DNA from: an uncultured Anaerolineae bacterium
GTDB lineage: Bacteria; Chloroflexota; Anaerolineae; VGOG01
Reading direction: 5' to 3'
Assembly (NCBI GenBank): GCA_964625745.1
Contig: CAZVCJ010000004.1
Span: 1,289 to 65,288, forward strand
DNA length: 64,000 bases
Part shown: in pieces, positions 4,331 through 46,501 of the stretch
Numbering within the stretch: the stretch's first letter is position 1
Layout of the letters: the number at the start of each line of letters is the position of its first letter
The notes under the pieces: model-generated
The model's input: only the letters and a program-made list of their open reading frames with translations
What the model was told of the DNA's origin: nothing
The model's database searches: none
Translations under genes and position numbers: made by a program

Positions 4331-7010
4331 ACTCTCATTTGCTCAGAAGATCATCGCCTCTCGCAGGGGCTTGATGGAAGGCATGCCTCCTCGGCTGACG
4401 CACAAGGCCGAGGCCGAGGGCGGCTGCGGGGTGGTGGGCCTGGCCTGCTCCGAGCCAGTGGCCGGGCGAACCATCCTCGCGCCTTCGGCGCAGATGCACA
4501 ACCGTGGCAACGGCAAGGGCGGAGGCATCGCCGCTGCCGGCCTCTCGCCTCAGCAGATGCGGGTCTCGCGGGAGCAGTTAGCCAATGATTACCTGATCCA
4601 GGTTGCCATTCTGGACCCGGCGGCCAGAGAGGACGTGGAACGGGAATTCATCTCCCCCTTCTTCGAGGTGCACCAGGCCTATCGTATCCCTACTTTGGAC
4701 GATTATCGCGAGGTGGAGGGGCTGGAGGTCCGCCCTCCCGACGTCTGGCGCTACTTCTGCCGCGTCAAGGAAAAGGAACTGATCCACTTCATTGAAGAGC
4801 ATGGCCTATCCGACCTCGATCCTCGCCGGGCCGAGGACGAGTTTGTCTATCAGAACACCTTCCGCCTGAACCGCCGTTTCTACGCCTCCCTGGGCGAGAA
4901 GCGGGCCTTTGTCCTCTCCCACGGCCGGGACATGATGGTCCTCAAAATTGTCGGCTACGCCGAGCAGGTGGCTCGATACTACCTGCTGGAGGATTTGGAG
5001 GCCCACGTCTGGGTTGCCCACCAGCGCTATCCCACCAAGGGGCGGGTCTGGCACCCGGGCGGGGCCCATCCCTTCATTGGCCTGGACGAGGCCCTGGTGC
5101 ACAACGGTGACTTCGCCAACTATCACGGCGTCTGCGAATACCTGAGGCAGCGCAACATCTATCCCCTCTTCCTGACCGACACCGAGGTCTCGGTGCTCCT
5201 CTTCGACCTCTGGAACCGGGTCTACGGCTATCCTCTCGAGTACATCATTGAGGCCCTGGCCCCGACCACGGAGCGGGATTTCGAGATGCTGCCTGAGGAA
5301 AAGCAGCGGGTCTACCAGGCCATCCAGACAGCCCACATCCATGGCTCCCCTGATGGTCCCTGGTTCTTCATCATCGCCAGGAGCCTGCCCCACGAGGCGA
5401 ATGGCCAAGGGTTGCCGTTGCAGCTCCTGGGGATCACCGACACTTCCATGCTCCGCCCTCAAGTGTTCGCTCTTCAGGAGGGTGCGGTGCAGATCGGTCT
5501 GATTGCTTCGGAGAAGCAGGCCATTGATGCCACCCTCAGAAGCCTGGCTGAGGACGATCCGCGCATCTGTCCCGTCGCCGACAGGTACTGGAACGCGCGA
5601 GGGGGGAGCTACACCGATGGGGGAGCCTTCGTCTTCACCGTGGAGCGCCCCCCCACCCCCCCCTGCCAGGGAGGGATGGGGGGGCGGGCCAGGTTGACCT
5701 GCACCGACAAGTTTGGCCGCGTCATCTCCACGCCGCCTGGGCAGAAACACAATAACCCTACTACCCCTTCGACTATGCTCAGGGCAGGCGTCTCCATTGC
5801 AGAGCCTCGCCTATCCCTGGAGAGGGCAGTCAGCACCCGCCTCGAAGCCGCAGAATCCCCAACTCTCTTTCGCTACATCGCAGGGAAGCCTGTCCTGAGC
5901 GAAGTCGAAGGGATGAGAACCTGGGATTACGGCACGCTGGCCTGGCTGTGCCGTCGCATGGAAAGGCTGGCCGAGGAGGGGGACAGGGAAAGAACCCTGG
6001 CCGTCGAGGTGTTGACCCTGCTCTACGACCGCCGTTACGATACCGGCGACAAGAAGCGAAGCTCGGTCGTGGCCATGCTCGAGGGGAGCATTTACGCCAT
6101 CCTCTGCGCCGTCCCGCTTTTGGGTGAGGGTCGCCCCGGTCGGTATCAGCGCCTCGATTGGGAGGGCCGGGGACAGTTGCGAGAGCCCGGAAGTACTGGG
6201 CAGATTCTGGTCATTGACGTGCGCTACTTTCCTTCCGAGGGGGAATCGAGCGCTGCCCGGCTCATCGTCGAAGCCTATCATGGGGGTTGGCGGCATTTCA
6301 TCGTCTTCGACTTCCGAGGGCAGCGGTTCTGTGCCTGCGGTCTCGGTCCTGACACAAGGGGCGTCCGCATGGACGTTTACGGCAGCGCAGGCGACTACCT
6401 GGGTTCGGGGCTGGACGGGGCGGAGGTGCATGTTCACGGCTCGGCGCAGGATCAGGTGGGGCAGATACTCAAAAGTGGCAAGCTGGTCATCCACGGCGAC
6501 GTCGGCCAGACCTTTATGTACGGGGCCAAAGGCGGGGAGGTTTACGTGCTGGGGAACGCCGCCGGCAGGCCGCTCATCAACGCCGTGGGTCGTCCCCGCG
6601 TGGTCATCAATGGCACCTGCCTCGACTACCTGGCCGAGTCCTTCATGGCTGGCGACCCCCTGAACGGCGGCGGGTTTGTCGTCCTGAACGGGATCACGTT
6701 TGACGAGAGGGGGCGGCGCGTGGAGCAGGAGACGCCCTATCCGGGCGGCAACCTCTTCTCCCTGGCCTCGGGCGGGGCTATTTATCTCAGGGATCCGCAC
6801 CGCAAGGTCGGCGAGGATCAGCTCAATGGGGGTCGTTTTGTCCCTCTCACTCCTGCCGATTGGGAGCTCATCTTGCCCTACCTGTCGGAGAACGAAAGAT
6901 TATTCGGCATCTCTGTCACCGATGACCTTCTGACCGCTGGCGGCGCTAAGCGGCGCCCTGCCGAGGTCTATCGCAAAGTCGAGGCCACCAGGCTGGCGGT
7001 GCTGATTTAA
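4323..7010 (+). CDS. glutamate synthase-like protein: class II glutamine amidotransferase domain + GXGXG (GltB C-terminal) domain
   Basis: 895 aa. GGCGVVG nucleophile region, HQRYPTKG, ALVHNGDFANY. C-terminal half: GQRFCACGLG, GSAGDYLGSGLDGAEVHVHGSAQDQVG, GDVGQTFMYGAKGGEVYVLGNAAGRP. The start overlaps the upstream stop. Confidence 0.85.
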   Translation: MDRLSFAQKIIASRRGLMEGMPPRLTHKAEAEGGCGVVGLACSEPVAGRTILAPSAQMHNRGNGKGGGIAAAGLSPQQMRVSREQLANDYLIQVAILDPAAREDVEREFISPFFEVHQAYRIPTLDDYREVEGLEVRPPDVWRYFCRVKEKELIHFIEEHGLSDLDPRRAEDEFVYQNTFRLNRRFYASLGEKRAFVLSHGRDMMVLKIVGYAEQVARYYLLEDLEAHVWVAHQRYPTKGRVWHPGGAHPFIGLDEALVHNGDFANYHGVCEYLRQRNIYPLFLTDTEVSVLLFDLWNRVYGYPLEYIIEALAPTTERDFEMLPEEKQRVYQAIQTAHIHGSPDGPWFFIIARSLPHEANGQGLPLQLLGITDTSMLRPQVFALQEGAVQIGLIASEKQAIDATLRSLAEDDPRICPVADRYWNARGGSYTDGGAFVFTVERPPTPPCQGGMGGRARLTCTDKFGRVISTPPGQKHNNPTTPSTMLRAGVSIAEPRLSLERAVSTRLEAAESPTLFRYIAGKPVLSEVEGMRTWDYGTLAWLCRRMERLAEEGDRERTLAVEVLTLLYDRRYDTGDKKRSSVVAMLEGSIYAILCAVPLLGEGRPGRYQRLDWEGRGQLREPGSTGQILVIDVRYFPSEGESSAARLIVEAYHGGWRHFIVFDFRGQRFCACGLGPDTRGVRMDVYGSAGDYLGSGLDGAEVHVHGSAQDQVGQILKSGKLVIHGDVGQTFMYGAKGGEVYVLGNAAGRPLINAVGRPRVVINGTCLDYLAESFMAGDPLNGGGFVVLNGITFDERGRRVEQETPYPGGNLFSLASGGAIYLRDPHRKVGEDQLNGGRFVPLTPADWELILPYLSENERLFGISVTDDLLTAGGAKRRPAEVYRKVEATRLAVLI
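5646..5688. repeat. C-run/G-run palindromic element in-frame in the inter-domain linker
   Basis: Sequence: cgCCCCCCCaCCCCCCCCtgccagggagggatGGGGGGGcggg. Peptide: RPPTPPCQGGMGGRA. Confidence 0.8.
5766..5914. repeat. composite repeat in-frame in the linker ('ccttcgactatgctcagggcaggc' ... 'cctgtcctgagcgaagtcgaaggg')
   Basis: Shares modules with 2441-2465, 21381-21405 and 19110-19135. Peptide: PSTMLRAGVS...IAGKPVLSEVEGM. Confidence 0.75.
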
Positions 7011-7043
7011 GCAGTTTGCCACGGCGATTCGGACATTACGCTT

Positions 7044-9152: not shown

Positions 9153-10961
9153 CTAATCGGAGCTATAGTTCTTGAATAGCAAAGGTAGATAGCTCGTCCA
9201 GCACTGCGTATATACAGCGGTTACGGGAATTATTAGTGGGCTGTGCTCGTAATTGGTCATTGTACTGATAACGGTGATCGTCGTGATATAAGGGCCGTAA
9301 TTTGGCAGGTTGTCTTTATCTATGGAAACCATTGCCGAAGATGGCGTGTAGCCCTCAGGGCCGCTAATGGAGAGCCAGTCATCTATCGCCGTAGCGCTCC
9401 ACGTAGCACAGTTTGTATTCGGATTGGTGATTGTCCGCAACGGGAGAACGCCGTGGTCGCAGACGCGACCCAGGTCAACGACATTGGCGGGTTCCACTTC
9501 AAGGTAGTGGGTCGTTGTCATCACAGCGGCGGCCGCATCAATGCGTCCCCAGCCGAAGTATTCATCCCAACCAGGATCGCCCAGGTCAACAGCCGTGGAC
9601 GTGATGATGCCCGTTACCTGGACGTTGGTCAAATGGGGGTTAACCGACCAGAGCAGTGCTGCCAATCCCGATACCTGGGCAGCGGCCGCATAAGTACCGA
9701 CGAGGGGTGCGGCTGGTTTACAGGAAGGTAAGATACAGACACCCCAGATTCCGACTCCAGGTGCGGCAACATCCACCTTGTCATTGTAGGTGGTCGAGTA
9801 ATTGCGGGGGTATTCATCCTGACGGCCAGTGGCAGCAACGGAGACAACGTGCTCAAGAGCTGCTGGATATTGGTAGGCATCTGGGGGAACAGGATTATTT
9901 ACTCTGGGATCGCCCGACCCGGCAACGATAAGAGCGCCCTTAGAATAAGCATAATTTACTACATTCTGCGTTGAATGGGGGTAGTTGGAGCAGGTGAGTG
10001 AGAAGCTTAGGTTTATGATCTTGGCCCCATTATCAGCAGCATAGATAATTCCCCCGTTTATGTCAGCAATAGACCCGCCACCGTACTGATCGAGCACCTT
10101 AACGGGCATGATCTCAGCCCCCCAGGAGACGCCAGCGATGAGTATCGCGTTGTTGGTCTCTGCTGCCGCGACGCTTGCCACATAGGTCCCGTGCCAAAGA
10201 TCATCCTGAGGTTCGCCGTGCCAGTTGACAAAATCCCAGCCGTGCACATCGTCTACAAAGCCATTCCCATTCCTATCGTCGTCGATCCCATTGGTCGCCT
10301 TGTCATTCCCGTTCATATCCGTGCCCGTCTCCCCAGGATTTGTCCATATCTTATCTTTCAACTCGGGGTGCTCGAGATCAACACCCGTACCAATGACAGC
10401 GATAACGACTTTCTCGCTGCCAGTGGTGATGTCCCAGGCGGCAGGGGCTCCAATTTTGGACAGGTTCCAAGGAAAATACGGATCATCGGGGATGACATCC
10501 AGAGCGCGAAGACTGTAGCCAGGCTCGATTGCGATAGGGTCTGCAATCTGAACGACGTAATTGGGCTCGGCGTACTCCACCAGAGGGTTCCGCTTTAGCT
10601 TCTCTATCTTCTCTAGCTCCCGGCCCTCGGGCACCGATAGCAGCATGATGCCAAGTTGGCCCATCTCGTTCAGGATCTCCGCCTTTTCAGCGAGAAGCAA
10701 AGACTGGACACTGGCCTTTGGAATGCCCTCCTTGAATTTGACGATGATCTCACCCGCCTTGAACTCCACCGCGCCACGCCCCCCCTCTTTCCCCCCCAAA
10801 GCTTGCCCTGAGCAAGGCTGAAGGGTTGGGGGGGATGAGGGGGGGGCTGGAGCGGTTGTCGGCGGCATTGGGTCTTCGGCGGAAGAAAGGCAGGGGAGAA
10901 GGAGAAAAAGGGCAGTCAAGAGAAGGGTTAAGATCCTTCTGGTCATTGGTATATTCTTCAT
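9153..10961 (-). CDS. secreted S8 (subtilisin) family homologue with I9 propeptide; probably non-catalytic
   Basis: Has a signal peptide, a propeptide (IIVKFKEG...) and DDDRNGNGFVDDVHGWDF. The expected catalytic motifs read AVIGTGVD (Asp->Gly), HGTYVAS (His kept), VAGSGD (Asn lost) and VGTYAAAAQVSG (Ser->Tyr). Confidence 0.85.
   Translation of the reverse strand: MKNIPMTRRILTLLLTALFLLLPCLSSAEDPMPPTTAPAPPSSPPTLQPCSGQALGGKEGGRGAVEFKAGEIIVKFKEGIPKASVQSLLLAEKAEILNEMGQLGIMLLSVPEGRELEKIEKLKRNPLVEYAEPNYVVQIADPIAIEPGYSLRALDVIPDDPYFPWNLSKIGAPAAWDITTGSEKVVIAVIGTGVDLEHPELKDKIWTNPGETGTDMNGNDKATNGIDDDRNGNGFVDDVHGWDFVNWHGEPQDDLWHGTYVASVAAAETNNAILIAGVSWGAEIMPVKVLDQYGGGSIADINGGIIYAADNGAKIINLSFSLTCSNYPHSTQNVVNYAYSKGALIVAGSGDPRVNNPVPPDAYQYPAALEHVVSVAATGRQDEYPRNYSTTYNDKVDVAAPGVGIWGVCILPSCKPAAPLVGTYAAAAQVSGLAALLWSVNPHLTNVQVTGIITSTAVDLGDPGWDEYFGWGRIDAAAAVMTTTHYLEVEPANVVDLGRVCDHGVLPLRTITNPNTNCATWSATAIDDWLSISGPEGYTPSSAMVSIDKDNLPNYGPYITTITVISTMTNYEHSPLIIPVTAVYTQCWTSYLPLLFKNYSSD
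10777..10846. repeat. full-length nested C7/G7 palindromic element, in-frame in the subtilase ORF
   Basis: Sequence: cgC7-tcttt-C7-aaagcttgccctgagcaaggctgaagggtt-G7-atga-G8. Peptide: SSPPTLQPCSGQALGGKEGGRGA. Confidence 0.85.
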
Positions 10962-15735: not shown

Positions 15736-15739
15736 AGCC

Positions 15740-17044
15740 ATGACCTACGAAGGACACTTTAAGGCCGCGCTGCCCTGCGGGGTGCGCGATCTCTTTTTGG
15801 AAAGTGCGGCTAAGCTCTCCAGGCTGATGGCCATTTGGCGTCAGCTCTTCGATAGCTGGGCCTACACGGAGATCATCCCCCCCACCTACGAACACTACGA
15901 CGTCCTGATGGCCGGCAGCGATGCCGACTTCGAGAGGAGGATCTTCCGCGTGCTGGACCGCGAGGGCAACATCCTGGCCTTGCGCCCCGACATCACCACC
16001 CAGGTGGCCCGCATCGTGGGGACGAAGCTACACGACCTGCCCCTGCCCCTCCGCTTCTACTATCTCACCAACGTCTTCCGCTTCGAGGAGCCGCAGGCGG
16101 GCCGCCAGCGGGAATTCTATCAGGCAGGGTTGGAGCTCATCGGCGCCACCGGCCCCGAAGCCGATGCCGAGATGGTCGCTATACTTATTGAAGCCCTGCA
16201 ACGGGTGGGTCTTCAGGGCTTTCAGATCAACCTGGGCCAGATGGCGTTCTTCAGGGCCATCGTGGCCGAGCTGGATCTCTCGCCCGCCCAGGTGGAGGAG
16301 CTCAAGGGAGCTATTGATCGCAAAGACGAGGTGGGCTTGAGGAAATCCCTGAGGAAGTGGAAGATAGACGATGGTCACGCGATGGCCTTGCGCGAACTAC
16401 CCAATCTCTGTGGCGGTGAGGAGGCATTGGAGCGAGCAGCCAGCCTGGCCCCCAACGTTGGTGCCTCCCAGGCCATAGAGAACCTCAGTCACATTTATGG
16501 CCTGCTAACGGCCCAGGGTCTGGCTGAGTACCTGGTCATTGATCTCGGCGAGGCGCGAGGTATGGACTATTACACAGGTATCACCGTCGAAGGCTTCAGC
16601 CCTGGCCTGGGCTTCTCCATCTGCAACGGAGGACGCTACGACGAGCTCATCGGCCTCTATGGCCGCCCACTTCCAGCGGTGGGCTTCGGTCTGGGGGTGG
16701 AACGGGTGCTACTGGCTCTGGAGGAACAGGGTGAGCAAGAAGTGCACCTGGCTCCTCACCTCCTGGTGGCTGCCAAGGCGGCCTCGATGGGCAGAGCCAT
16801 CTTGCAGCGCCTGCGCCGCCGGGGACTGAAGGTGGAAGTGGATGTGATGGCCCGAGACGAGGCTGGCTTGCTGGAGCATGCGCGAGTGCGCGGGATTGCC
16901 TGGGTCATCGTTGGCGGGGACGCAGAAAAGGCTTTGCTCGCCACAGCCGACAGCCAGCGCTGGGTGAGCTGGGAAAGTCTGTTAGAACTTCCCCCCCAGA
17001 GTTGGGGGGGACGGAGGGGGGGCGAGGAGGTTGTGCATGAGTGA
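15740..17044 (+). CDS. hisZ: ATP phosphoribosyltransferase regulatory subunit
   Basis: 434 aa. HisRS-like catalytic-core fold without an anticodon domain (RFYYLTNVFRFEEPQAGRQREFYQAGLELIG). Overlaps the hisG start. Confidence 0.88.
   Translation: MTYEGHFKAALPCGVRDLFLESAAKLSRLMAIWRQLFDSWAYTEIIPPTYEHYDVLMAGSDADFERRIFRVLDREGNILALRPDITTQVARIVGTKLHDLPLPLRFYYLTNVFRFEEPQAGRQREFYQAGLELIGATGPEADAEMVAILIEALQRVGLQGFQINLGQMAFFRAIVAELDLSPAQVEELKGAIDRKDEVGLRKSLRKWKIDDGHAMALRELPNLCGGEEALERAASLAPNVGASQAIENLSHIYGLLTAQGLAEYLVIDLGEARGMDYYTGITVEGFSPGLGFSICNGGRYDELIGLYGRPLPAVGFGLGVERVLLALEEQGEQEVHLAPHLLVAAKAASMGRAILQRLRRRGLKVEVDVMARDEAGLLEHARVRGIAWVIVGGDAEKALLATADSQRWVSWESLLELPPQSWGGRRGGEEVVHE
16991..17022. repeat. 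short form of the C7/G7 palindromic element, in-frame at the hisZ C-terminus
   Basis: Sequence: C7-agagtt-G7-acgga-G7. Peptide: LPPQSWGGRRGG. Confidence 0.85.
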
Positions 17045-17732: not shown

Positions 17733-17938
17733 GTGAGATAGGGATTGCTTCGTCGCTCCGCTCCTACCCAGAAACTTCCCCACACCCCCGCTCTCTCCCC
17801 AAAGGGGCGAGGGGGCAAGTCCCCTCTCCCTCGCAGGGAGAGGGTTAGAGCCTGCCCTGAGTGGAGCGAAGGGGTGAGGGTGGGATGTTTTTGCCCCTAC
17901 GGATATGGCGCGATGCGCCATGGAAGACTCGCAATGAC
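17688..17938. repeat. composite MITE-like repeat filling the hisG-hisC spacer
   Basis: Terminal inverted repeat: gtcattgcgag (17688-17698) with ctcgcaatgac (17928-17938). Internal hairpin: cgaagcaatc/gattgcttcg. One 43-nt unit (ggggcgagggggcaag...cctcgcagggagagggtt) at 17804-17846. Confidence 0.75.
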
Positions 17939-19103: not shown

Positions 19104-19390
19104 CGACGCTTGTCCTGAGCTTGTCGAAGGGAAGCAACCCCCTCCGTGGTGGAGATTGCTTCGCCACTCAGAAATCTCCCCTCACCCCTGCCCTCGCCCC
19201 AAGGGGGCGAGGGGGTAAGTTCCCTTTCCCTCGCAGGGAAAGGGTTGGGGCGAGGGGGCAAGTTCCCTTTCCCTCGCAGGGAAAGGGTTGGGGCGAGGGG
19301 GCAAGTTCCCTTTTCCTCGCAGGGAGAGGGTTGGGGCGAGGGGGCAAGTTCCCTCTCCCTCATAGGGAGAGGGTTAGGGTGAGGGTGAAA
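19085..19390. repeat. composite repeat filling the hisC-hisB spacer, including a 4 x 43-nt tandem array (19204-19375)
   Basis: Modules, in order: gtcattgcgag...tgtcctgagcttgtcgaaggga...gagattgcttcg, then 4 head-to-tail units (ggggcgagggggcaagttCCCTTTCCCTcgcAGGGAAAGGGtt) starting at 19204, 19247, 19290 and 19333. Each unit holds a 10-bp hairpin. Confidence 0.9.
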
Positions 19391-21113: not shown

Positions 21114-21977
21114 ATGATCGTCTTTCCTGCCATTGATCTGCGTCAGGGAAAGTGTGTCCGCCTGCGTCAAGGGCGCCCCGAGGCGGAAACCGTCTTCTCT
21201 GATGATCCCGTGGCCATGGCTGAGCATTGGGTCTCCCAGGGCGCCGGGTGGCTCCACGTGGTGAACCTCGATGGTGCCTTCGGCCAGGCTTCATCGCCCC
21301 CCCTCGGTCCCCCCCAAAGTTGGGGGGGAAGTTCCAGGAATCTACGGGTGGTCGAGGAGATAATAAGCTCCAACTTCCAACCCTTCGGCTACGCTCAGGC
21401 CAGGCCTCCAACCTCCAACCTCCAAATCCAGTTCGGCGGCGGCCTGCGCACTATGGCCGACATCGAGCAGGCGTTGGAGTTGGGTCTGGACCGAGTCATT
21501 CTGGGAACGGTAGCAGTGGAAGAGCCGAGCCTGGTGGCCGAGGCTGTCCAGCGCTTTGGAGCCGAGCGAATCGTGGTAGGCATTGATGCTCGAAAGGGAA
21601 AAGTAGCCACCCACGGTTGGCGGCAGGTCTCATCCGTCGCTGCTACTGAGCTGGCTCTTCGAGTGAGGGAACTGGGTGTGGAGCGCGTCGTCTACACCGA
21701 CATCGCCCGCGACGGAATGCTCAGCGGAGTCAACGTCGAAGCCACCAGGGAGTTGGCTCAGCACACAGGGTTGAAGATCATCGCCTCAGGAGGCGTTTCC
21801 TCATTGAATGACCTGCGTCGCCTTAAGGAAGCCGAGGCGAGCGGGGTGGAGGGCGTCATCATTGGCCAGGCGCTGTACAGTGGGGCGCTGGAATTGCGGG
21901 AGGCGATAGAGATAGCGAGCGAATCGGCGAATCAGCGAGCGAGTCAGCGAATTGAGGGAGTGAGGTCAGGATGTTAG
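21114..21977 (+). CDS. hisA: ProFAR isomerase (HisA) carrying two in-frame repeat insertions
   Basis: [34 protein letters not shown]. About 25-30 extra residues lie between DGA and GGG compared with what I recall of typical HisA. Confidence 0.9.
21295..21328. repeat. short C7/G7 palindromic element in-frame in hisA (opposite orientation to the hisZ copy)
   Basis: Sequence: cgC7-tcggt-C7-aaagtt-G7. Peptide: [13 protein letters not shown]. Confidence 0.85.
21368..21430. repeat. 'ccaacccttcggctacgctcaggccaggcctccaa' module with TCCAACC heptamer flanks, in-frame in hisA
   Basis: Peptide: [22 protein letters not shown]. Same family as 2346-2470. Confidence 0.85.
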
Positions 21978-29113: not shown

Positions 29114-29356
29114 ATGAGCAAGTATAGGCTACCTTTGGTTATTGAGCCCCTGGAAGAGGGCGGGTATCTAGCTACCAGTCCTGCGTTTCCTGGGCTGTTG
29201 GTTCAGGCGGATACGGTGGAAGAGGCACTAGCCTTGGCCCCCGGCGTGGCCCGAGCTTTGATTGAGGCCATGCGGGAGAAAGGGGTGCCTTTGCCAGCGG
29301 GTTTGCAAGCGGTAGAAGCGCCGCCTTTTCGCACTGAGGTATTGGTGCTAGCATGA
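29114..29356 (+). CDS. hicB: HicB family antitoxin
   Basis: 80 aa: YRLPLVIEPLEEGGYLATSPAFPGLLVQADTVEEAL. GGGAGGGGAG RBS. Overlaps hicA by 4 nt. Confidence 0.8.
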   Translation: MSKYRLPLVIEPLEEGGYLATSPAFPGLLVQADTVEEALALAPGVARALIEAMREKGVPLPAGLQAVEAPPFRTEVLVLA

Positions 29357-40400: not shown

Positions 40401-43400
40401 GCTGCCCAGGAACGCTTCCTCCTGGTCCGAGAGGCCATCGCCGTCGGTGTCGGCGTCGCGCGGGTCGAAGACGTAGCCCCCTTCGTCAAAGCGAATGGCC
40501 GCCATCTGCAACTCCCAGGCGTCGGACAGGCCATCGCCATCGGTATCCCACCTGGTGTCATCAGGGTCGTTTCCGCCGTAGTCCTGAGCCATCAACCCGT
40601 CGCCGTCGGCGTCTTTGAACTTGAGATCCGAGGCCCACCCACTCACCTGCACGAACTCATCCAGGGTATTGGGAAAAACGTCCATCACGATGTTGCTGCC
40701 CAGGTCGGCCGGGTCCGCTTCGCCCTCCAGACCTCTGTCCACGCAGACGACGACGGGTATCGCCCAGGAAATCACCCAGAGCACTGCCCAGCACTCGACG
40801 CCGGGGAGGGCGTAGCCAGTGGAGAGGATCAGGGGGACGGTGCGGTTGATACCCGCCTCGGAGACGGTGCTGATGGCCGAGAGATCGTCGTCGAACCAGC
40901 CCTTGTAAAAAGTGCGCCCCCAGGCCTCGTAGGCATCGCTGACATGCCAGGGGTTAACCCTATTCGTGTCCCCAAGGTGGGTGGACATGGATTTCTTTTT
41001 TGTGTCCAGCTCGTATTCGAAGCTGGTGGACCGGATTTGATCTTTGTCGTACTTCCAGATATACAGGGACGTCCAGTATTCCCGGGGAAGCTCGTGAATC
41101 ACCGTGCTGGTGATGGTGGTTTTGAACTCGAACTGAGCGCCGGGCACCATGCCCCGCTCTGGGTTGACCAGCCTGGAGTCCAGCGTGCCCATTTTGACCA
41201 GGCCGTCGTCTTCTTCATCTATCGCCAGCTCGAAGGAGAAGAACGTCTTGGCCACCGCCTCGGTGACCACGCCTGTGATGGTAAATCCCGCGCCCGTCAG
41301 CCACAGGAGAACGTCCACCAGCGTCATGATACCGACGATGATGGCGCCGATGACGGTCAGGGAGAACACAGCCAGCATGATGGTCACGATGGCCGCGGCG
41401 AAGGTTTGGGCCAGCAACATGGAGAGGCCCAGTCCCCGCCTCAGGCCTTCGTTTTTGCACAGGGCGTAGATGAAAATGCCGAAGACGATGCCCAGACCGG
41501 CGATCATGCCGATCAGCCCTGCGATCCTGGACATGCCGATGAACTGTGATGAGCTCTTGAGAACCTGGGTCGTCGCACTGAGCACGCTGACGCCGCTGTA
41601 GGTCAGGGCCCTGATCATCCCCACAACCATCCGAAGGGGCGAGAGGATCAGCATGTAGCCCAGAGCTATCCCGACAATGGCATGCACCGCCATTTGGGCT
41701 TCTGTATTGGTGCCCAGATACTCCCTGGTCAGGAAATACACGCCGACGGCAAGGCCGGCCAGTACGAGCATTGCGCCAGCGGTCACTGCTCCCTTCGCTC
41801 CCAACCAGCGGCCCACATTCTTCCACTTGGCGATCAGGTTCCCGAGAGTGTGGCCGAATGGTTGTATCGCCCCCCTCGCTCCGGCTTGCGAGCTTCTGAC
41901 GATCTGGGCCAGAAACTCCAAAGCCTTTGTGGAGTAGAGGAAGTTGCGCATGATCCACATCTGGACCACGGCCACCACTGCCTTCGCTCCGAACGTAGCC
42001 ATGACAGCAGCAATGGGCCGGTCGGAAGTCTGGTACTTCTGTGTCAACAGGGTGCCGCCGCTTTGAACGGCTACGTGGACGCCAGTATATAGTGTGAGAT
42101 AGTAGATCTGGCCCACGAACACCGCGCCGGTGCGCAGATCCTCAGGGTGCTCCTCGTCCACGTACTCGTCGGCGAAGTCCTTTTCGTAGCGATTCTCTAG
42201 CTCCTCCCAGTAGTCCTCGATGGGATAGGGCTCCCAGGCGTCGTCTCGGTAGCGATACGGCGCCCAGTTCATGCCGGCCACCGTCTGCACCTCTACGTCG
42301 TCCGGCTTGAGGTCTAGCTTGAGCTGATGGTTGTCATCGGACCAAGTGATGGTGGATGCGCCGACTCGATCCTCGTCCAGGTTCAGGCTGCGGAAGCGCT
42401 CTTCCCGGGCAAAGAGCAGCGTCGGGGCGACAGGCACGTGGGGGGTGAAGTGGTCGTCCAGGATCTTCACGGCTTCGGTCATGCCGACGGTCGCCACTGC
42501 TTCGTCCATGGTGGGGTAGGTGTCGGTGACGACGCTCATGATGTTGCCCGCAGTGTCACTGATGCGCCAGGTGCTGGTAACGGAAACGCCGCTATTGGTG
42601 GTGTGATTGAAGCGGCTGTAGATCTCGGTGATAGTGATGTCCAGCTCGTCGTTGCCCCTGATGCACTCGTCATCGGTGGGGTCGTCGGGATCCTTTTCGT
42701 CCCACTCCTCGCAGTCCCGGCCGGCCAGGAAGGTGAGTTCCAGGCCCCTGGTCAGGAACATGAGGGCGGAATCGTCGTCCAGGTCATCGTCCACGTCGGG
42801 GTCCTCGTACACGATGGCGAAATCGGTGCCGTGATCCTCGCGCACGGCCAGGCCGGTTAGTTTCCATTCATCGTCGTACGTGTGGACGATCTCTGCTTCG
42901 TTTTTCTCCTCGTAGCTTGTGCAGCGGCCATCCTCGTAACGCTCGCACACGTCCACCAGTGCCTGGACAACCCACACCAGGCGCACCTGGTGGGCGTTGC
43001 CCCACTGGTCGGCCGGCTGGTACAGCATCCTGCCCGAGAAGGCCACGCGTGCGCTGCCCTTTGGCTCGGTGACCAGGACCAGCGGGACGTACACGGCCTT
43101 GTCCGTGCCATCCTCGTTCAAATCCATGATGGAGATGCCGTAAGCTTCCAGGTCGTTCTGAGGCGGCAGGTTGTTGGGCGAGCCTGTGGTCTTGATCTCC
43201 AGCATGGGTATCAACTTGACGTCGCCGTTGTCGTTGGGCGAGTGGGAGGTGCTGTGGTCCAGGTCGTAGAAGGTCTTGCCGTCGGTGTCCTGCATCTGGC
43301 CCTGGTCGTCGCCCTGCGGCCAGTCCAGCACGTTGAAGGCGTACCACAGGTGGTCGGGATCCGTCGGGCGCAGTTGGAACTCTACAAAAGTAGGCAGGTC

Positions 43401-45191
43401 TTCGGTCAGGTTATCCACCACCAACTGGAAGGGTGCATCGGCGGTGTAGGTGGTGTCGCCCTTGTAATACGGCGAGAGGTCCAGATTGTCGGGCACGTCG
43501 TCGTTGTCGTTGTCGCGGTCGAAGAGGTCGGGTGTGCCGTCGTTGTCCATGTCCGGTGGGAGAGCGCTTTCGGAGGCCCGGCCGGTGTTCCACTCGCGCC
43601 CGTCGTCAAGGCCATCCCTGTTGGTATCAAGCTCCGTGGGATCGCTGTACCACATCTTATCTTTGTAGGAGAAGCCGTTGATCTCCTCAGGATCCTCGAT
43701 GCCGTCGCTGTCGGAGTCGTCAGAGTCATCGGCGGTGCCCAGGATACATTCTTCGAAGTCGGTCAGGCCATCTTCGTCGGTGTCGCCGGTGTCATCGGGG
43801 TCACATTCGGGGGCGGAGGATTCGTTGTTGTCGTTGTTGTTGGAGGCAAGAGCAGGGAGTTGGATATTGGATATTGGGTATTGTGTATTGTGTGAGGTGT
43901 CTAGCGGGTTGAGGTTGGGATTCCAGTTGGGCTGGGTTAAGAGGGCTTCGAGGTCGCGCTGCATGTCGCTTTCCTGCTGAAGGGCTTCCTGTTCCTGGGC
44001 GCGTGTCTGCTGCTGCTCGAAGAATGCCGCCACCCGCAGGCTCTGCAACAGCGGCGAGAAAATCAGCGAGACGATCACGGTCACGGCCAACGCGATGTAC
44101 AGGCGACTGGAGCGTTTGTGGATCACAAGCATGATGGACAGAATCAGCGAGAAGACCAGTGGGATTGCAAAGCGGAGATCAGGGATTAGAGATTGGAGGT
44201 TGGAGATTGGAGACTGGAGATTGGGGGCTGCGGATCCTGACACCCCAGATCCGAAATCCGCATTCCGAAATCCGAAATCAATTGTCGCTTCGGCGCGGCT
44301 TTCCTGATCGTCCGGACCCGGTGGGAACTGGAGGCGCAGGATCTGGCGCAGAGGCAGGCCATCCGCACTGATCCACAGTTCGCCCTCGCCCGTCATCTTC
44401 ACGTAAGTCTTGGGCAGGTCCAGACTAACGCCGGGTGGCAGCTCCCCCTTCTCGGTCAGGTACTTCTCCAATTGGTCGCGCACATAAGCGGCGTAACTCC
44501 GCCCATCAACGTCAAACGTGAAACGTGAAATGTGAGGCGTGAGGCGTGAGTCCACGTTTTCACGCTTCACGTTCTTGGCCGCTGCCAGGAATGCCATGAA
44601 GTCGCCCTGGGGCGCGAAGAGGCCCGTGAAGTTGGGGATTTCCTGCCAGGCCTGCGTGTCCTGGCGGGCGTAGGCCCGGTCGCCATCCACCTTGATTTCC
44701 ACGCCGCTGCCGGGGTCCACCACGCTGCCGCCCTGCGACCACAAGGTCAGGTGCAGTTGCCGCTCGTGGAGGTCGGTTTCACCTTCCAGGTGCAGGGCTT
44801 CTTCTTTGCTCGTGCGGCCCACGTTGAGGATGGTGGGCTTGGGGATCACGGTCTGCTTGATGTCGGCCGTGAAGTGGTAGGCACCGGCCTGCTGGGCGCG
44901 CCGCCAGGCGGCCTGCACTGCGTGCTCTGGCGATGCCGCCGCAGTCACGGATGGCGCCTGGGCATACACCTGCTCGCTGGGAGCGCCCAGATCGGTGCTC
45001 TCCACAACCGATGCGAGCCGTGCCAGTGCGTCGTGAGCTCGCTCTCGGATTCGGTTTGCTCCTCCTTGCAGGGACGCGGCGATTGTGGGCAGTTCGCTGA
45101 GAACAGCCATCTGAGCGGCTAGTACCGCAACGCCAAGCACTACGGCGCACAATGCCAGAATCAGGCGATTGGGTGAGGATGGGTGCTTCAA
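31485..45191 (-). CDS. giant (4568 aa) membrane-embedded surface protein with TSP3-like Ca-binding repeats, LamG x2, Ig-like domains, a P-domain and a C-terminal TM anchor
   Basis: TTG start with GGAGG 10 nt upstream. Landmarks: N-terminal signal anchor; TM pair ~44045-44165; Asp-rich DxDxDG repeats ~43480-43830, ~40245-40612 and ~32030-32205; 5-7 TM helices ~41270-42010; two LamG/ConA-like domains ~37560-38850; PT linker ~35955-36075; proprotein-convertase P-domain-like ~32655-33040; C-terminus ...PVNRLELLASWLGLAALVVLAALAVALIWRRKT. Confidence 0.9.
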   Translation of the reverse strand: MKHPSSPNRLILALCAVVLGVAVLAAQMAVLSELPTIAASLQGGANRIRERAHDALARLASVVESTDLGAPSEQVYAQAPSVTAAASPEHAVQAAWRRAQQAGAYHFTADIKQTVIPKPTILNVGRTSKEEALHLEGETDLHERQLHLTLWSQGGSVVDPGSGVEIKVDGDRAYARQDTQAWQEIPNFTGLFAPQGDFMAFLAAAKNVKRENVDSRLTPHISRFTFDVDGRSYAAYVRDQLEKYLTEKGELPPGVSLDLPKTYVKMTGEGELWISADGLPLRQILRLQFPPGPDDQESRAEATIDFGFRNADFGSGVSGSAAPNLQSPISNLQSLIPDLRFAIPLVFSLILSIMLVIHKRSSRLYIALAVTVIVSLIFSPLLQSLRVAAFFEQQQTRAQEQEALQQESDMQRDLEALLTQPNWNPNLNPLDTSHNTQYPISNIQLPALASNNNDNNESSAPECDPDDTGDTDEDGLTDFEECILGTADDSDDSDSDGIEDPEEINGFSYKDKMWYSDPTELDTNRDGLDDGREWNTGRASESALPPDMDNDGTPDLFDRDNDNDDVPDNLDLSPYYKGDTTYTADAPFQLVVDNLTEDLPTFVEFQLRPTDPDHLWYAFNVLDWPQGDDQGQMQDTDGKTFYDLDHSTSHSPNDNGDVKLIPMLEIKTTGSPNNLPPQNDLEAYGISIMDLNEDGTDKAVYVPLVLVTEPKGSARVAFSGRMLYQPADQWGNAHQVRLVWVVQALVDVCERYEDGRCTSYEEKNEAEIVHTYDDEWKLTGLAVREDHGTDFAIVYEDPDVDDDLDDDSALMFLTRGLELTFLAGRDCEEWDEKDPDDPTDDECIRGNDELDITITEIYSRFNHTTNSGVSVTSTWRISDTAGNIMSVVTDTYPTMDEAVATVGMTEAVKILDDHFTPHVPVAPTLLFAREERFRSLNLDEDRVGASTITWSDDNHQLKLDLKPDDVEVQTVAGMNWAPYRYRDDAWEPYPIEDYWEELENRYEKDFADEYVDEEHPEDLRTGAVFVGQIYYLTLYTGVHVAVQSGGTLLTQKYQTSDRPIAAVMATFGAKAVVAVVQMWIMRNFLYSTKALEFLAQIVRSSQAGARGAIQPFGHTLGNLIAKWKNVGRWLGAKGAVTAGAMLVLAGLAVGVYFLTREYLGTNTEAQMAVHAIVGIALGYMLILSPLRMVVGMIRALTYSGVSVLSATTQVLKSSSQFIGMSRIAGLIGMIAGLGIVFGIFIYALCKNEGLRRGLGLSMLLAQTFAAAIVTIMLAVFSLTVIGAIIVGIMTLVDVLLWLTGAGFTITGVVTEAVAKTFFSFELAIDEEDDGLVKMGTLDSRLVNPERGMVPGAQFEFKTTITSTVIHELPREYWTSLYIWKYDKDQIRSTSFEYELDTKKKSMSTHLGDTNRVNPWHVSDAYEAWGRTFYKGWFDDDLSAISTVSEAGINRTVPLILSTGYALPGVECWAVLWVISWAIPVVVCVDRGLEGEADPADLGSNIVMDVFPNTLDEFVQVSGWASDLKFKDADGDGLMAQDYGGNDPDDTRWDTDGDGLSDAWELQMAAIRFDEGGYVFDPRDADTDGDGLSDQEEAFLGSDPNRPDTDGDGITDAAETEGWDFYYRYPEKTRIFSDPLNADADSDGMDDLFERTLHTECGKLDDESERRDCYNNNLFNPYIWNTNPIGVYTEVGDPDKVVKPTQTFPFTTTVQNNVETGSPLWVRGTTELEADPLTGFPLEMTFDIAKDKSQSLYTDLTVPAGTGNQTVTLTTDVKSQLHTPSVWAWDPWQTDSHATSYPKALSLAAVSVNGWNTAYAAVSREDYRVRGYRVSPAGITDSGVDVFAEAGWSATSEPAIACNDSGRCLVVYSYKNNYGTYWVTWRSATSNWGSLSLHQVESAGGECEAWGATVASDGDNFLVAWMRECSGDEQIKVRHVLANGDKSGGVLTLDSASNVSFPKLAWVGDRYQAVWERGSDIYTAYISGQSATEPEAVSASAASEWSPRIAYDPLSGRTLVIYTSRSGSNRSLRGRILAGSNTPDEFTVGNLSDQAGWEAAVSNDPVNGGWAVAWSLNGQYTVYSQGVGMNGELRGERGRTEAPGKSYLLDVTCAEPRIAALFHFDEEGDTACTFADSSGFDHDASCWQDYIPSGKEGKRGNAVYFEGHHETGGATFEEGAWIRAGGVGLSVSSYGITFWFKAECDTCGIYSVGDAAAFNYDDHDRDIYLLNGNLCAKLGEGNPNTTESEVICSSGKNFADGQWHHVANTFGGGVGGQHLYVDGKLRATGERSSSNLHTQSVIMGVAVGVQPCNTYGCDDKRFFKGYFDELTIYPRALSEGEVVDDYLGALVVYPFDEVSGAETFNNAARSGYGAAECSAGQCPQAGKEGIAYNAVKFDGTDDVITGADVPIAGSSFTIAFWAKREWTNRDEYIVSQGSAGSDRDLYIGFWSNNRFICAFDTTNYLVTSNQYSDTDWHHWACSYDFGTGQRTIYRDGVQVAQDTTARYYWGSGPLRIGKARWGNYFRGLVDELAVWPGVLSASEIKTLYQKVKALDDSVTECLVSRTTHDGEHLHINRTALHETTTPLGRSEQQVEDEVIVDGTLPTADITSLADDQHIGETGTLPIGGEARDNTYVTKVEVRVDGGAWQEADGAETWTWDWDTSAVGEGWHTLSVRANDPADNVGNPSSIGVFIDRTPPQLTVTEVRGKAWDDSQGRWWVWVKGTVEDSTNGSLYVLLQGQHRRRISPEEETHVRAGGGWTSLRFSAGDGSAHQWELNYALPAFDNEGNALPNPTGVYTLYMRARDDAGNYLPEAVYGVFEVDNTPPVADLQYMGPYTDAIACNDVTLTGVITDPGPVDSGVGILYVKFEPVAELWKSWYYYHSGRATLAESGWGITTTTWTYEMPDLEGFYELRLESHDVQPWPYHGGKAAVWNGMVDTAAPRAEPGLKWLSLPFGPTEVTCYVEDLNLDEDTFIGCPCPEDTWQRTYFHEISSWYSEVTTDTNRLVRITATCQVNGALPFLAHYVCDAYDHCTTATYPIDVPIPPTPTPWPPSEWGPTPTPTQEPTATPTPTPTPTPPPPLSLDSAVITPSNGTAFSTTAAFGVEGQAYAENYLQTLTVTVNSAPFYDTGWPDSPDPGAVTETTWTTSYTPLGEGYYTLNSEVSDWISQVQTTTHPITVTVDLQPPAPPTFDTTVITTARRAAQGAAVLSGNAADNFGVARVDVNPDDRGWGAASLTGEAISPVWRYTWPIDDADPDGVNYDVTARATDFASHTNATTATLLFDMQAPEAVTITLGYFDALGAYHPVEPRQTITDGNQLVIEWTLSTDGSGVAGYRVGWTDSPTNTEGTLYVPAGTAYSYTQVISEAHEVYAHVVSVDIYGNWQEQTEGPVYVDAPLTPDLIRTQLPTGLLYHGWMDSGCTQMGRSRSVADRAPTGASLSENQEFYATWDANALRLAWVGANWDVEGDLFIYLDTRSGGATQLLNPYGGPAPGIYLPGNLPELVTSEWPEFEQVRQSQTVAALQSMAMQADYLVWVVDSETAALWEWNEVTEGWDLSLWLTAEQYQWNNGITDLYLPFDLLDISNPATNSLGLLAAASEEDALRLWSAMPDRNLLNSVLAVNPLAAVQAATQRNFVLPNFYRWPSLGPLLCPYTEALQEPPTSQGFVDSDLRVELTVEPLGTTYALFGDDLFWQWETLFQESGPKSQQFTFLDNTHPPVGQDDVISYTLRVSNRGTSEALDVQAFVLAYSALSLPDGSRLDQGYMEYRQLNVGSVAPGDTVTVTFSGVVEVESNWRYERCVNVDGLPPEVCRQLLQWAILDGLVFDARNPFSGTTGIPTQPPLEWVWADHAVDIDPPQHVGIEVPKLVVGPGANTVRGYASDPSGVPLVEVEVRDPLGGVTVLNCPDAMPHDGQWTCEWNVVGSDGDEFELRARATDGYDHVSDWTIPWHVVVVDATPPTVALDDEARAAVDGQFIGPGGELLTGPISDTHSSVVVQVCREVDEETVCESAATLLSTQAPTDTAHFYDDVPTAPIVITGIITDVITATTYCGGGEITRTFTVADAFIVGDVDLGFNATHPAREEIVAELVSPSGTRALVIAPSGATYGFANYDVWLDDAASGPLHAPIQDDPTEPYFDRPAQPFSSLSTFIGEASQGMWQLNICDLNPLLNEGTYNRSRLSLTPQSAALSTAGRWNYPLPLIEGADGLSVTLSIYGLDGVGNRTPEPISLTYQLDVVPPALTTTVVITMMYELSPTLVLAGQVSDGGGVDEVYVRVDPPDAASYRDLTARVGEEWVYTLRPDTGGTYALWLEAHDLVGNIRLEGPLYVEVALSDSDGDSIPDDEDNCPLVSNPDQADADDDEAGDACDNCPNHANPGQEDLDGDGVGNACDDTANDLPTSTGSGSFTLQASAGYFSFIAGVGNPSPADAPSLDFLHGFFNFTIEGLAPGGTVEVTISLPDDMPPDTQYWKYGPTVANPANHWYQIPMGDNDGDNVITITITDGGDGDDDLVANGVITEPGGPGQPPPQPPVPVGGIIVPVNRLELLASWLGLAALVVLAALAVALIWRRKT
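43860..43894. repeat. period-7 array (TTGGATA type, 5 units) in-frame in the giant ORF
   Basis: Units: ttggata ttggata ttgggta ttgtgta ttgtgtg. Peptide: HNTQYPISNIQ. Confidence 0.9.
44172..44283. repeat. period-7 array of 16 units (TTGGAGA type switching to ATCCGAA type) in-frame in the giant ORF
   Basis: Units counted directly. Peptide: [33 protein letters not shown]. Confidence 0.9.
44507..44576. repeat. period-7 array (AAACGTG type, inverting to CACGTTT type) in-frame in the giant ORF
   Basis: Units: aaacgtg aaacgtg aaatgtg aggcgtg aggcgtg agtccac gttttca cgcttca cgttctt. Confidence 0.9.
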
Positions 45192-45475
45192 AAAAAGTGT
45201 GCCTCCTTCGATTCAAGGCCAACCAGCGATGGAGCATGTCACGCAGACCTGGGGAAAACGAGCAAGCGGCAACCATCAGGGTATATTGACCCTGATCTGT
45301 TGCCACCTGGGTGTTGCAGAACATCGTTCGAACGTTGAGCCAGCATCGCAGGGGGGGTATGCCATCTGGTACTCCGGTACTGCGGATGAACAAAGGGCCA
45401 TTCTGAAATTCTGTGCCAGTTTATCACAGTCGCGTCAAATGTCAAGTTTACGTATTCATTCACTCCAATGCCCCG

Positions 45476-46501
45476 TCAAGCCTCCCGCGCCACCAGCACT
45501 TTCAGCGTTCCAGGTTGGGCCGCGTGCCCGAAGGCGGCGAGCACCTCGGAGAGGGGATAGCGAGCCTGGATCAGAGGGGTAACCTCCACCAGCCCCCGCT
45601 CCAGTAGCCGCATCGCTGGAGCGAACGGCCCACAGCGCGAGCCGACCAGCGTGATCTCATCCACCACGGCCATAGTCAGATCCGCGTCGAGCGGCTTCTG
45701 TAACTTCCCCCCCAGAGCCCGCCCTGAGCAGGGTCGAAGGGTTGGGGGGGATTGAGGGGGGGCGTGGTAGGTGGATTTCAACACGATGGTGCCCCGGGGG
45801 CGGACGAGTCGCCGCGCGGCGGCGTATCCTCCCGGATGACCGGTCGCCTCGACGACGACGTCGGCCCCTCCCTGGACGGTCGCATCATCCAGCGCTGTGG
45901 GGATGCCTTGCCGCGCCACGATTTCCAGTTTCTCACGATGGTGTCCCACCACGGTCAGATGGCAGCCCGTGAGAGCCAACACCTGGGCGCAGAGCAACCC
46001 CAGCTTGCCGTCACCCACCACGATGACGCGGTCTGTGGGACGCACGTGTACCTGCTGGACGATCTCACAGGCGGCGGCCAGCGGCTCGGTGAAGACAGCG
46101 ACCTCGTCTGAGACGGCGTCGGGCACGGGATGGAGGTTGGTGATGGGCAAGGTCAAGTACTCGGCGAAAGCCCCGTCGCGGGTTCTGATGCCCAGCGTGG
46201 TACGATTGGGGCAATGGGTAGGGCGGTTGGCCCGGCAGGTGGGACAGGTGCCGCAAGCAACGTTGATCTCACCCACCACGCGGCGGCCTTCCCATGCCTT
46301 GGCCCCCGGCGCGCGCTCGACCACGCCCACGAACTCGTGGCCGGGAACGCCTCGGAACTGGTGGTATCCCTTCACCAGCTCCAGGTCGGTGTTGCACACC
46401 GCGGCCACGTTCACGCGGATGAGCGCCTCGCCTGGCGGCGGCTCTGGTGTGGGGTAGTCATTCACTAACTTCAGTTTTCCATCAAGCAGCAGTGCACGCA
46501 T
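45476..46501 (-). CDS. zinc-type medium-chain alcohol dehydrogenase/reductase family protein
   Basis: 341 aa. GHEFVG, CGTCPTCRANRPTHC, VVGDGKLG. Carries repeat 45707-45762 in-frame. Confidence 0.88.
   Translation of the reverse strand: MRALLLDGKLKLVNDYPTPEPPPGEALIRVNVAAVCNTDLELVKGYHQFRGVPGHEFVGVVERAPGAKAWEGRRVVGEINVACGTCPTCRANRPTHCPNRTTLGIRTRDGAFAEYLTLPITNLHPVPDAVSDEVAVFTEPLAAACEIVQQVHVRPTDRVIVVGDGKLGLLCAQVLALTGCHLTVVGHHREKLEIVARQGIPTALDDATVQGGADVVVEATGHPGGYAAARRLVRPRGTIVLKSTYHAPPQSPPTLRPCSGRALGGKLQKPLDADLTMAVVDEITLVGSRCGPFAPAMRLLERGLVEVTPLIQARYPLSEVLAAFGHAAQPGTLKVLVAREA
45707..45762. repeat. C7/G7 palindromic element with 'gccctgagcagggtcgaagg' core, in-frame in the dehydrogenase
   Basis: Sequence: C7-agagcccgccctgagcagggtcgaagggtt-G7-attga-G7. 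Peptide: PPQSPPTLRPCSGRALGGK. Same frame and orientation relative to its host as the subtilase copy. Confidence 0.85.

Follow-up and report, generated by a model that had tools for sequence, protein, structure and literature searches.

Short in-frame C7/G7 palindromes with a nested 24-nt core in an Anaerolineae clade: probable miniature mobile repeats

We analysed a stretch of 64,000 nt (hereafter the window; 59.9% G+C) from contig CAZVCJ010000004.1 of an uncultured Anaerolineae bacterium (Chloroflexota), which carries four canonical copies and one divergent variant of a palindromic repeat built on runs of seven C and seven G residues, the C7/G7 element. The window contains 22 C or G runs of at least 7 nt, 17 of which fall in the five element loci. 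The pattern C7-N4-32-G7 gave 8 matches (overlapping, at 5 loci) against 0.03 expected, and none of 100 dinucleotide-preserving shuffles reached 8. The host open reading frames (ORFs) are all supported by Pfam and correspond to a GATase/GXGXG glutamate-synthase-like (GltS-like) protein, a subtilase with a Fervidolysin-type prodomain, HisZ, HisA and a zinc-type MDR dehydrogenase.

Two copies are long forms. Copy 1 (10778..10847, plus strand; runs 10779-10846) has four runs, g-C7-TCTTT-C7-AAAG-(24-nt core)-TT-G7-ATGA-G8-c, and lies in the subtilase ORF (9153-10961, minus strand) between the signal peptide and the Fervidolysin-type prodomain, where it encodes PAPPSSPPTLQPCSGQALGGKEGG. Copy 2 (45698..45763, plus strand; runs 45707-45762) has three runs and measures 42 + 24 nt, CTGTAACTT-C7-AGAG-(core)-TT-G7-ATTGA-G7-c; it encodes APPQSPPTLRPCSGRALGGKLQK after the strand TIVLKSTYH of the MDR dehydrogenase (45476-46501, minus strand). 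Copies 3 and 4 are three-run short forms of 42 nt. Copy 3 (16982..17023, plus strand; runs 16991-17022; nhmmer E = 5e-13) reads TTAGAACTT-C7-AGAGTT-G7-ACGGA-G7-c and encodes LELPPQSWGGRRGG in the C-terminal tail (last 18 codons) of hisZ (15740-17044). It stands directly upstream of the GAGGAGG ribosome-binding site and ATG of hisG, and is a gene-junction copy rather than one internal to hisZ. Copy 4 (21296..21337, minus strand; runs 21297-21328) reads g-C7-TCGGT-C7-AAAGTT-G7-AAGTTCCAG on the plus strand; its loop is turned round against the outer arm and so departs from the majority configuration. It encodes 14 aa between strand beta-2 and helix alpha-2 of HisA (hisA, 21114-21977). Copy 5 (5646..5688, strand undefined; runs 5648-5684) is the palindrome C7-A-C8-TGCCAGGGAGGGAT-G7, which encodes PPTPPCQGGMGG in a linker of the GltS-like ORF (4323-7010).

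A preliminary description of this DNA had listed five copies, and all were found. Profiles built from related copies recovered copies 1-4 only (nhmmer), and we treat copy 5 as a divergent variant because the family profiles do not recognise it. The peptides given there also agreed with our translations, namely PPTLQPCSGQALGGK and PPTLRPCSGRALGGK (MDR dehydrogenase) from the long copies and PPQSWGG from both short copies. Its explanation of the shared PPQSWGG, a palindromic centre, proved wrong: the loop ARAGTT is not palindromic, and copies 3 and 4 encode the same peptide because the loop has the same plus-strand orientation in both. The opposite loop, AACTTT, yields PPQLWGG, which was found in the hisA orthologues P0003, P0007, P0010 and P0011. 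The nesting described there is present, but the nested part turned out to be an independent 24-nt element. This core is a separate repeat family with the consensus CCTGYCCTGAGCnnnGTCGAAGGG that sits between ARAG and TT of the loop. The core of copy 1 (10802..10825, plus strand; CTTGCCCTGAGCAAGGCTGAAGGG; nhmmer E = 1e-05) lies between AAAG and TT, and the core of copy 2 (45718..45741, plus strand; CCCGCCCTGAGCAGGGTCGAAGGG) is exactly the 24 nt (8 aa) missing from the short-form orthologue L113.

We compared the his-pur region with two syntenic genomes, L110 and L111 (83-95% amino-acid identity), and further with L009, L031 and L075. The presence/absence polymorphism that the preliminary description had proposed to look for was found: orthologues of hisA, the MDR dehydrogenase and the subtilase differ in whether a given codon is empty or holds a short or a long unit. 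The hisA site follows AFGQASS (orthologues 80-90% identical) and is empty in P0043, P0051, P0058, P0073 and P0085; the short unit there encodes PPLGPPQ[S/L/P]WGGSSK, and P0022 carries a long unit with the core (PPQPFDKLRTPLWGG). At the nucleotide level, the window insert in hisA is exactly 42 nt relative to L110, and in L111 the 24-nt core is added to the unit, whose loop is turned the other way. Among MDR dehydrogenases 88-99% identical, P0122 (99% identical to the window protein) and P0128 are empty, P0123-P0127 carry the short form (+14 aa) and the window carries the long form (+22 aa); the nucleotide alignment gave +42 and then +24. The orthologous subtilase site holds a short unit in L085; in L086 and in the window the unit is long, and the core variant differs between the two. 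Copy 5 is a 27-nt (9-aa) insertion relative to the ~90% identical orthologue of L009, and copy 3 is missing from the hisZ tail of L110.

Units also occupy sites that are empty in the window, in hisD (+42 nt) and hisF of L111, in the gcvPB region of L031, in purH of L110 and L075 (+39 nt net) and in the GltS-like gene of L009 (+33 nt net). L075 and L110 have their purH units at one codon, as reverse complements of each other. All ten indels measured were multiples of three (24, 24, 24, 24, 27, 33, 39, 42, 42 and 42 nt), and the frame was kept even where the unit is 44-46 nt long and flanking bases are replaced. The multiples of three therefore point to selection on the translated frame and count against removal at the RNA level.

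The reading that we prefer, with a probability of about 72%, is that the C7/G7 units are tiny non-autonomous palindromic mobile repeats native to an Anaerolineae clade, which insert regardless of coding and are read through in frame; they would be selfish or neutral rather than functional. Elements would be copied to new chromosomal sites without detectable target duplication and with little regard for coding, and most would land in genes because the genome is gene-dense. The surviving copies would be those that keep the frame and lie in tolerant loops, termini or gene junctions, where, judging from the sequences, they would be transcribed and translated as short disordered Pro-Pro-x-Gly-Gly segments. 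After insertion, the 6-nt loop or the whole unit inverts in place, most likely through template switching at the inverted homopolymer arms; the arms decay through point mutation, and strains would swap alleles through short recombination tracts. The 24-nt core inserts between ARAG and TTGG of the loop, always in one orientation, and uses the identical junction between TTGGAGG heptamer units.

The junctions bear directly on another explanation, in which no transposase acts and templated repair or template switching, at breaks or stalled forks in C- or G-rich (Pro/Gly codon) sites, copies a hairpin ectopically through microhomology of its arms, with strand switching producing the inversions. Neither target-site duplication nor flank complementarity rose above chance in the flanks, the empty/filled junctions lack a duplication, and no conserved target or transposase was found in the flanks, window or related loci, all of which would suit repair. 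Some empty sites were already C- or G-rich (hisD CCCCTCCCACCTCCGAGGGGAG; GltS-like AGGTGGAGGGG), the net gains of 33 and 39 nt, where bases beside the unit are also replaced, are more like a patch than a clean cut-and-paste, and frequent inversion in place is typical of template switching at palindromes. However, three independent three-run insertions are exactly 42 nt long with identical ends, the core is always 24 nt at a single junction and in a single orientation, which looks like defined ends, and the empty sites of hisA and the MDR dehydrogenase are not homopolymer-rich. Templated repair is the chief competing account; we consider it unlikely as the origin of the family, and favour mobile repeats.

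We scanned one genome per species with the pattern CCCCCCC-ARAG-N0-30-TTGGGGGGG, which gave at least 106 loci; the copy statistics that follow refer to the matches listed (99 copies, 54 three-run units) and, for the 37 cores, to ~0.9 Mb of related DNA. The three-run unit measures 42 nt (NNNNAACTT-C7-ARAGTT-G7-AYYGA-G7-N) and the four-run unit 44-46 nt (cg-C7-N5-C7-ARAGTT-G7-N5-G7-c); with the core, units reach 66-70 nt. The consensus ends are cg-C7 / G7-c or AACTT-C7 / G7-c, and conservation ends at the outermost runs. Four-run spacers are TCTTT/ATGAA or TTCAT/AAAGA, the second pair being the reverse complement of the first, with the loop ARAGTT in both. When the loop of three-run units was fixed as ARAGTT, 50 of the matches listed had the extra run on the G side, against 10 with it on the C side. 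Since the spacer pairs and the side of the extra run vary against a fixed loop, the loop and the outer part invert independently. The density of elements is estimated at 40-80 per Mb.

The search of relatives called for in the preliminary description returned canonical copies in at least 23 species-level metagenome-assembled genomes (MAGs) labelled Anaerolineae, Anaerolineales or Chloroflexota. Isolated canonical copies were also present in two cyanobacterial MAGs, one MAG labelled 'uncultured bacterium' (L068) and one Truepera MAG (L072, at a contig end). Most remaining matches stem from unrelated phyla; their loops differ, and the palindromes look fortuitous. The cyanobacterial copies are C7-AAAGTT-G7 units with a partial outer G run, at 2656-2675 of L007 (a Leptolyngbya MAG, on a 7.9-Mb contig) and at 4863-4882 of L105 (a Coleofasciculaceae MAG); they could reflect horizontal transfer, an older common family or chance.

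Hairpins were predicted for all five window copies folded as single-stranded DNA, which raises the alternative that the units are functional hairpins or cruciforms, or G-quadruplexes or i-motifs, maintained by selection as a nucleoid- or topoisomerase-type binding site, a pause site in transcription or translation, or an mRNA stabiliser of the kind proposed for repetitive extragenic palindromes (REPs). The predicted hairpins are stable, the arms are better conserved than the spacers in the aligned related copies, the family persists in at least 23 species, and copies lie unevenly on the sense and antisense strands (58:28, see below). The arms had also been called capable of forming G-quadruplexes or i-motifs, and G7-N5-G7 can indeed be read as G3-N1-G3-N5-G3-N1-G3, a formal G-quadruplex motif, with a stable competing hairpin predicted. 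Against selection, presence and absence differ at 99% protein identity, sister genomes differ in copy positions, the copies are distributed uniformly along genes and occupy every frame and either strand, and orthologous copies have mutated arms (CCTCCCC in L111, TCCCTCT in L113 and CCCTCCC in L009). Rfam matches in the window and in 13 loci with a copy outside a predicted gene were limited to a tRNA and a PYLIS element, none covering the repeats. The mutated arms and the presence/absence at 99% identity argue against strong selection on structure, and we regard a functional structure as quite improbable beside mobile, selfish or neutral repeats.

Coding context was assessed with a codon-usage model trained on the Pfam-supported genes of the window and checked on held-out genes, and with a simple ORF-based gene finder for the related loci. 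A frame classifier based on 240-nt flanks was dropped, as it called 13% of control positions 'same frame but stop'. Copies lie in predicted genes in 86 of 99 cases (87%), compared with 83% of random positions in the same loci, and are evenly spread along the genes; 13 lie outside. Coding status thus makes no difference to the elements, which are not gene-specific, and the earlier view that a location only inside ORFs is a special property of the family did not hold. A related hairpin repeat is likewise intergenic in the window, at 19204..19385 (plus strand) in the hisC-hisB spacer, where 4.2 tandem copies of a 43-nt unit, AAGTT-CCCTTTCCCT-CGC-AGGGAAAGGG-TT-GGGG-CGA-GGGGGC, show a layout resembling the three-run element (AACTT-hairpin-G run-spacer-G run-C). 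One of these units is missing from the assembly L107, which is otherwise 99.9% identical.

As had been proposed, both orientations are used: all six orientation/frame classes are occupied (2, 14, 12, 10, 29 and 19 copies), and the peptides differ, with only PP...GG in common. The use of six strand/frame classes places conservation at the DNA level rather than at the peptide level. That the window copies are in frame and free of stop codons is true, but this is largely automatic, as each is open in 2-6 of the six frames (mostly 4-6), and a random 42-mer at 60% GC is estimated to be open in at least five of six frames ~29% of the time. The stop-free state is thus unremarkable because base composition leaves most frames open, and we rejected stop-free design as a weak argument. 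The C and G runs are read as Pro and Gly in any frame and on either strand.

These data also weigh on the suggestion that the likeness lies in the protein, as a selected PPxxGG linker or turn, or that the runs are an assembly or poly-G sequencing artefact. Every copy encodes Pro-Pro...Gly-Gly, and poly-G artefacts are known for two-colour Illumina chemistry. However, the nucleotides are conserved where the peptides differ with frame and strand, synonymous Pro and Gly codons are unused in the copies, 13 of the 99 copies stand outside predicted genes, and copies recur mid-contig in independent assemblies from ENA, JGI, NCBI and Logan. On the frame-dependent peptides and the independent assemblies, we excluded peptide-level selection and artefact, both of which are hardly credible. 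The homopolymer runs might instead be contingency tracts, in which slippage switches the host genes by phase variation. Runs of 7-9 C or G are prone to slippage, and run and spacer lengths do vary between copies (four-run units of 44, 45 or 46 nt); yet the hosts are housekeeping genes (hisA, hisZ, hisD, purH), all copies examined are in frame, and copies 3 and 4 are unchanged, with no run-length differences, in three independent assemblies 99.8-99.9% identical to the window. Phase variation is thus a very improbable account, and insertion of mobile repeats followed by read-through in frame is preferred.

Modelling of the insert positions, also proposed in the preliminary description, succeeded for HisA. 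Residues 1-62 and 102-269 of the window HisA align with solved HisA structures in the same frame, with ~30 extra residues in between. The AlphaFold2 (AF2) model is a confident TIM barrel (pLDDT 86, pTM 0.84). Only two stretches within the barrel have a pLDDT below 50, residues 60-72, which are the C7/G7 peptide, and residues 91-99, which are the heptamer/core insert; helix alpha-2, between the two inserts, is intact. The other weak stretch is the non-conserved C-terminal tail (pLDDT ~55 from residue 271). The MDR dehydrogenase model was poor (pLDDT 61), and the insert position there was therefore taken from the alignment to solved homologues.

The core behaves as an element in its own right. 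Ten copies are present in the window (8 in ORFs and 2 intergenic), 8 of them outside C7/G7 elements. Relative to the asymmetric loop, its insertion point and orientation are constant in 15 of 15 long forms (13 related loci and the two window copies). Of the 37 full-length cores, predicted genes contain 29; C7/G7 loops hold 11, another ~10 are bordered by TTGGAGG-type heptamer units on both sides, and some cores form tandem arrays. Their flanks show a weak consensus, gagG^ttgG. Three-run units in turn lie within an outer CCCCTCTCC...GGAGAGGGG palindrome in 10 of 54 cases, against 2.8 expected from re-paired flanks. Because the nesting is multi-level, with the core in the C7/G7 loop and the C7/G7 unit in CCCCTCTCC/GGAGAGGGG palindromes, targeting of hairpin loops can be envisaged. 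It is possible, though doubtful, that the C7/G7 hairpin and the core form an undescribed ultra-small, codon-phase-neutral system (42 and 24 nt) that is gene-adapted in Anaerolineae, targets hairpin loops independently of RAYT and insertion sequence (IS) transposases, and has arms that are adaptive in giving Pro-Pro...Gly-Gly in any frame and on either strand.

Insertion of the mobile repeats may involve a single-stranded hairpin as intermediate, which an enzyme encoded at another place would recognise in trans; an HUH/RAYT-like protein is the obvious candidate. We offer this tentatively and hold it to be doubtful. A REP/RAYT or IS200/IS605-type single-strand mechanism is a guess, made because it would fit the missing duplication.

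Several observations weigh against mobile repeats of this kind. Pfam searches of 28 window ORFs found no transposase or other mobilising enzyme, a crude regular-expression search for HUH...Y and RAYT motifs found none in ~0.9 Mb of related loci, and clustering of 555 neighbouring proteins revealed no family recurring beside the elements; the recurrent clusters were ordinary ones, such as ABC ATPases, Hdr-like oxidoreductases and similar families. Ectopic templated repair could also account for units that appear at new sites, given that transposition is deduced from the comparison of sites. The strain-level difference in the MDR dehydrogenase has the look of alleles being exchanged, not of a unit being excised or inserted: the window shows 13 mismatches to the empty allele, 11 of them no more than 25 nt from the site, and this clustering suggests exchange through a short recombination tract, not clean excision. 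ARAGTT lies on the sense strand about twice as often as on the antisense strand (58:28); the excess could reflect selection, and the copies are phylogenetically non-independent. Finally, the gene calls at the related loci rest on the simple codon-usage gene finder described above.

Full-text literature searches returned no description of the C7/G7 family, which is apparently undescribed so far, as a new family of a kind of element already known. The preliminary description had likened it to the Rickettsia palindromic elements (RPEs), which are ~105-146 bp long and restricted to Rickettsia (Ogata et al. 2000, as summarised in PMC3184786 and PMC3733652). The likeness holds for behaviour: in both, palindromes lie in frame in functional protein-coding genes, are present or absent in close relatives and place the inserted peptide at tolerant surface positions, and no transposase is known. 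The elements here differ in length (42-46 nt, or 66-70 nt with the core), have homopolymer arms, use all six frames and occur in free-living Chloroflexota. By size, host and the descriptions of RPEs, the C7/G7 family is not an RPE family.

REPs are GC-rich palindromes of 20-40 nt with a high copy number and a GTAG or CGTC 5' tag, and are mainly extragenic (PMC3733652; Bertels and Rainey 2011, PMC3116915); intragenic REPs in Opitutus terrae, R. conorii and Thauera encode 20-30 extra residues (Di Nocera et al. 2013, PMC3733652). Like REPs and REPINs, the C7/G7 elements are imperfect GC-rich palindromes in many copies without target-site duplication, and REPs often form inverted pairs. Unlike them, their consensus ends lack GTAG or CGTC, coding sequence is not avoided, and a RAYT was found neither in the window nor by the crude motif scan of the related loci. 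MITEs (miniature transposable elements with inverted repeats), such as Nezha, Correia and the Coxiella QMITEs, measure 70-400 bp and have IS-matching terminal inverted repeats and target-site duplications (PMC10969869, PMC5896051). They share with the C7/G7 elements a non-autonomous nature, folding into hairpins, occasional in-frame ORF fusion and empty/filled sites in relatives; the C7/G7 elements have neither IS-matching terminal inverted repeats nor target-site duplication. The C7/G7 family is a member of none of the RPE, REP and MITE families.

The small dispersed repeats (SDRs) of Nostocales, reportedly described by Elhai et al. in 2008 (Genome Res 18:1484), are said to be 21-27 nt long and mobile-looking, some of them hairpins, and nested in each other or in other repeats. 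On that description, they closely match the 24-nt core, which is dispersed, nested and has exact 24-nt empty/filled sites, and the heptamer arrays of the window resemble the short tandemly repeated repetitive sequences (STRRs) of heterocystous cyanobacteria. They differ in that they belong to another phylum, the C7/G7 hairpin is longer and most copies here are in genes; the likeness is one of description only. The closest counterparts would thus be RPEs and intragenic REPs in behaviour and, for the core and its nesting, the cyanobacterial SDRs.

The remaining cores of the window lie as follows. Two stand alone in the GltS-like ORF, at 5765..5788 (minus strand; PSTMLRAG; nhmmer E = 2e-07) and 5889..5912 (plus strand; PVLSEVEG; nhmmer E = 7e-07), each an exact 8-aa insertion relative to L009. 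One lies at 21381..21404 (minus strand) between CCTCCAA/TTGGAGG heptamer units and forms a second insertion in hisA (18 aa), 43 nt downstream of copy 4. Three (2364-2387, 2409-2432 and 2440-2463, together 2364..2463, minus strand) are separated by TTGGAGG-type heptamer spacers in a Glu_synthase-domain ORF (1751-4330). A weaker intergenic core lies between hisG and hisC (17851..17873, plus strand; nhmmer E = 0.04), and a core of the PFDKLR type (CTTGTCCTGAGCTTGTCGAAGGG) lies just past the hisC stop codon (19109..19131, plus strand; nhmmer E = 0.014). Period-7 tandem arrays (GTTGGAG, TTGGAGA, GAGTTTC, ACGTTTC, CCAATAT and others) are numerous, mostly in ORFs and encoding SNLQ-type peptides, and several are inverted arrays forming long hairpins; they lie at 21405-21425, 43860-43883, 44174-44279, 44508-44535, 48192-48224, 49874-49963, 52330-52405, 52745-52798, 56178-56252 and 58650-58678. 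The window purH carries, at 27190-27240, a 16-aa insertion (ILSGSTELAEVLSKGT) that is absent from both syntenic orthologues and looks like a core-type repeat broken by a further insertion; L110 purH has a threefold tandem of EAAASYICID instead.

Some copies stand at gene junctions and join ORFs, the hisZ tail of the window being one case. A single 625-aa ORF of L033 links a LivM-like permease part to a LivG-like ATPase part, with two tandem C7/G7 units precisely at the boundary (3105-3166), and the repeats appear to have fused two neighbouring genes into one reading frame. In the window (50957-54277, minus strand), a single 1106-aa ORF contains GCV_T (aminomethyltransferase) and SHMT domains joined by a ~270-aa linker with heptamer arrays, which is a genuine fusion or else a pair of genes that stop-free repeats have merged.

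Other features were observed nearby. A PDDEXK_3 nuclease-family gene lies in the his operon between hisB and hisH (20045-20443, plus strand); it is 95% identical in L110, above its neighbours, and absent from L111, and may be mobile or of homing type, with no demonstrated link to the repeats. A 4568-aa ORF (31485-45191, minus strand) with TSP3_bac, Laminin_G_3 and Big domains encodes a giant surface protein, whose syntenic counterpart in L110 has 6042 aa. Small toxin-antitoxin-type genes (HicB-like, DUF5615, a DUF433/Phd-YefM fusion and DUF2283) lie between housekeeping operons at 29030-29356, 55189-56238 and 47139-47582. The PYLIS element is Rfam PYLIS_3, the pyrrolysine insertion sequence of mttB, at 2510-2609 (minus strand) of L082, an Anaerolineae MAG (58.7 bits).

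For the genes that carry them, the repeats add disordered loops of 8-30 residues to housekeeping enzymes (HisA, HisD, PurH and PolA-region genes) and can join adjacent ORFs (hisZ-hisG and the LivM-LivG-like ORF of L033). They also create spurious 'hypothetical protein' motifs, for example PFDKLR and PVLSEVEG, and are likely to break or confuse Chloroflexota metagenome assemblies and orthologue alignments. The finding bears on how repeats far below transposon size move, a question that has stood since RPEs and cyanobacterial SDRs were described. With exact 42-nt and 24-nt ends and orientation-specific nesting, target and end rules would be derivable from complete genomes, and genes that co-occur with the repeats across the phylogeny could point to a candidate enzyme. 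The Anaerolineae clade offers a second, independent and very active system, in which empty, short and long alleles occur in near-identical strains.

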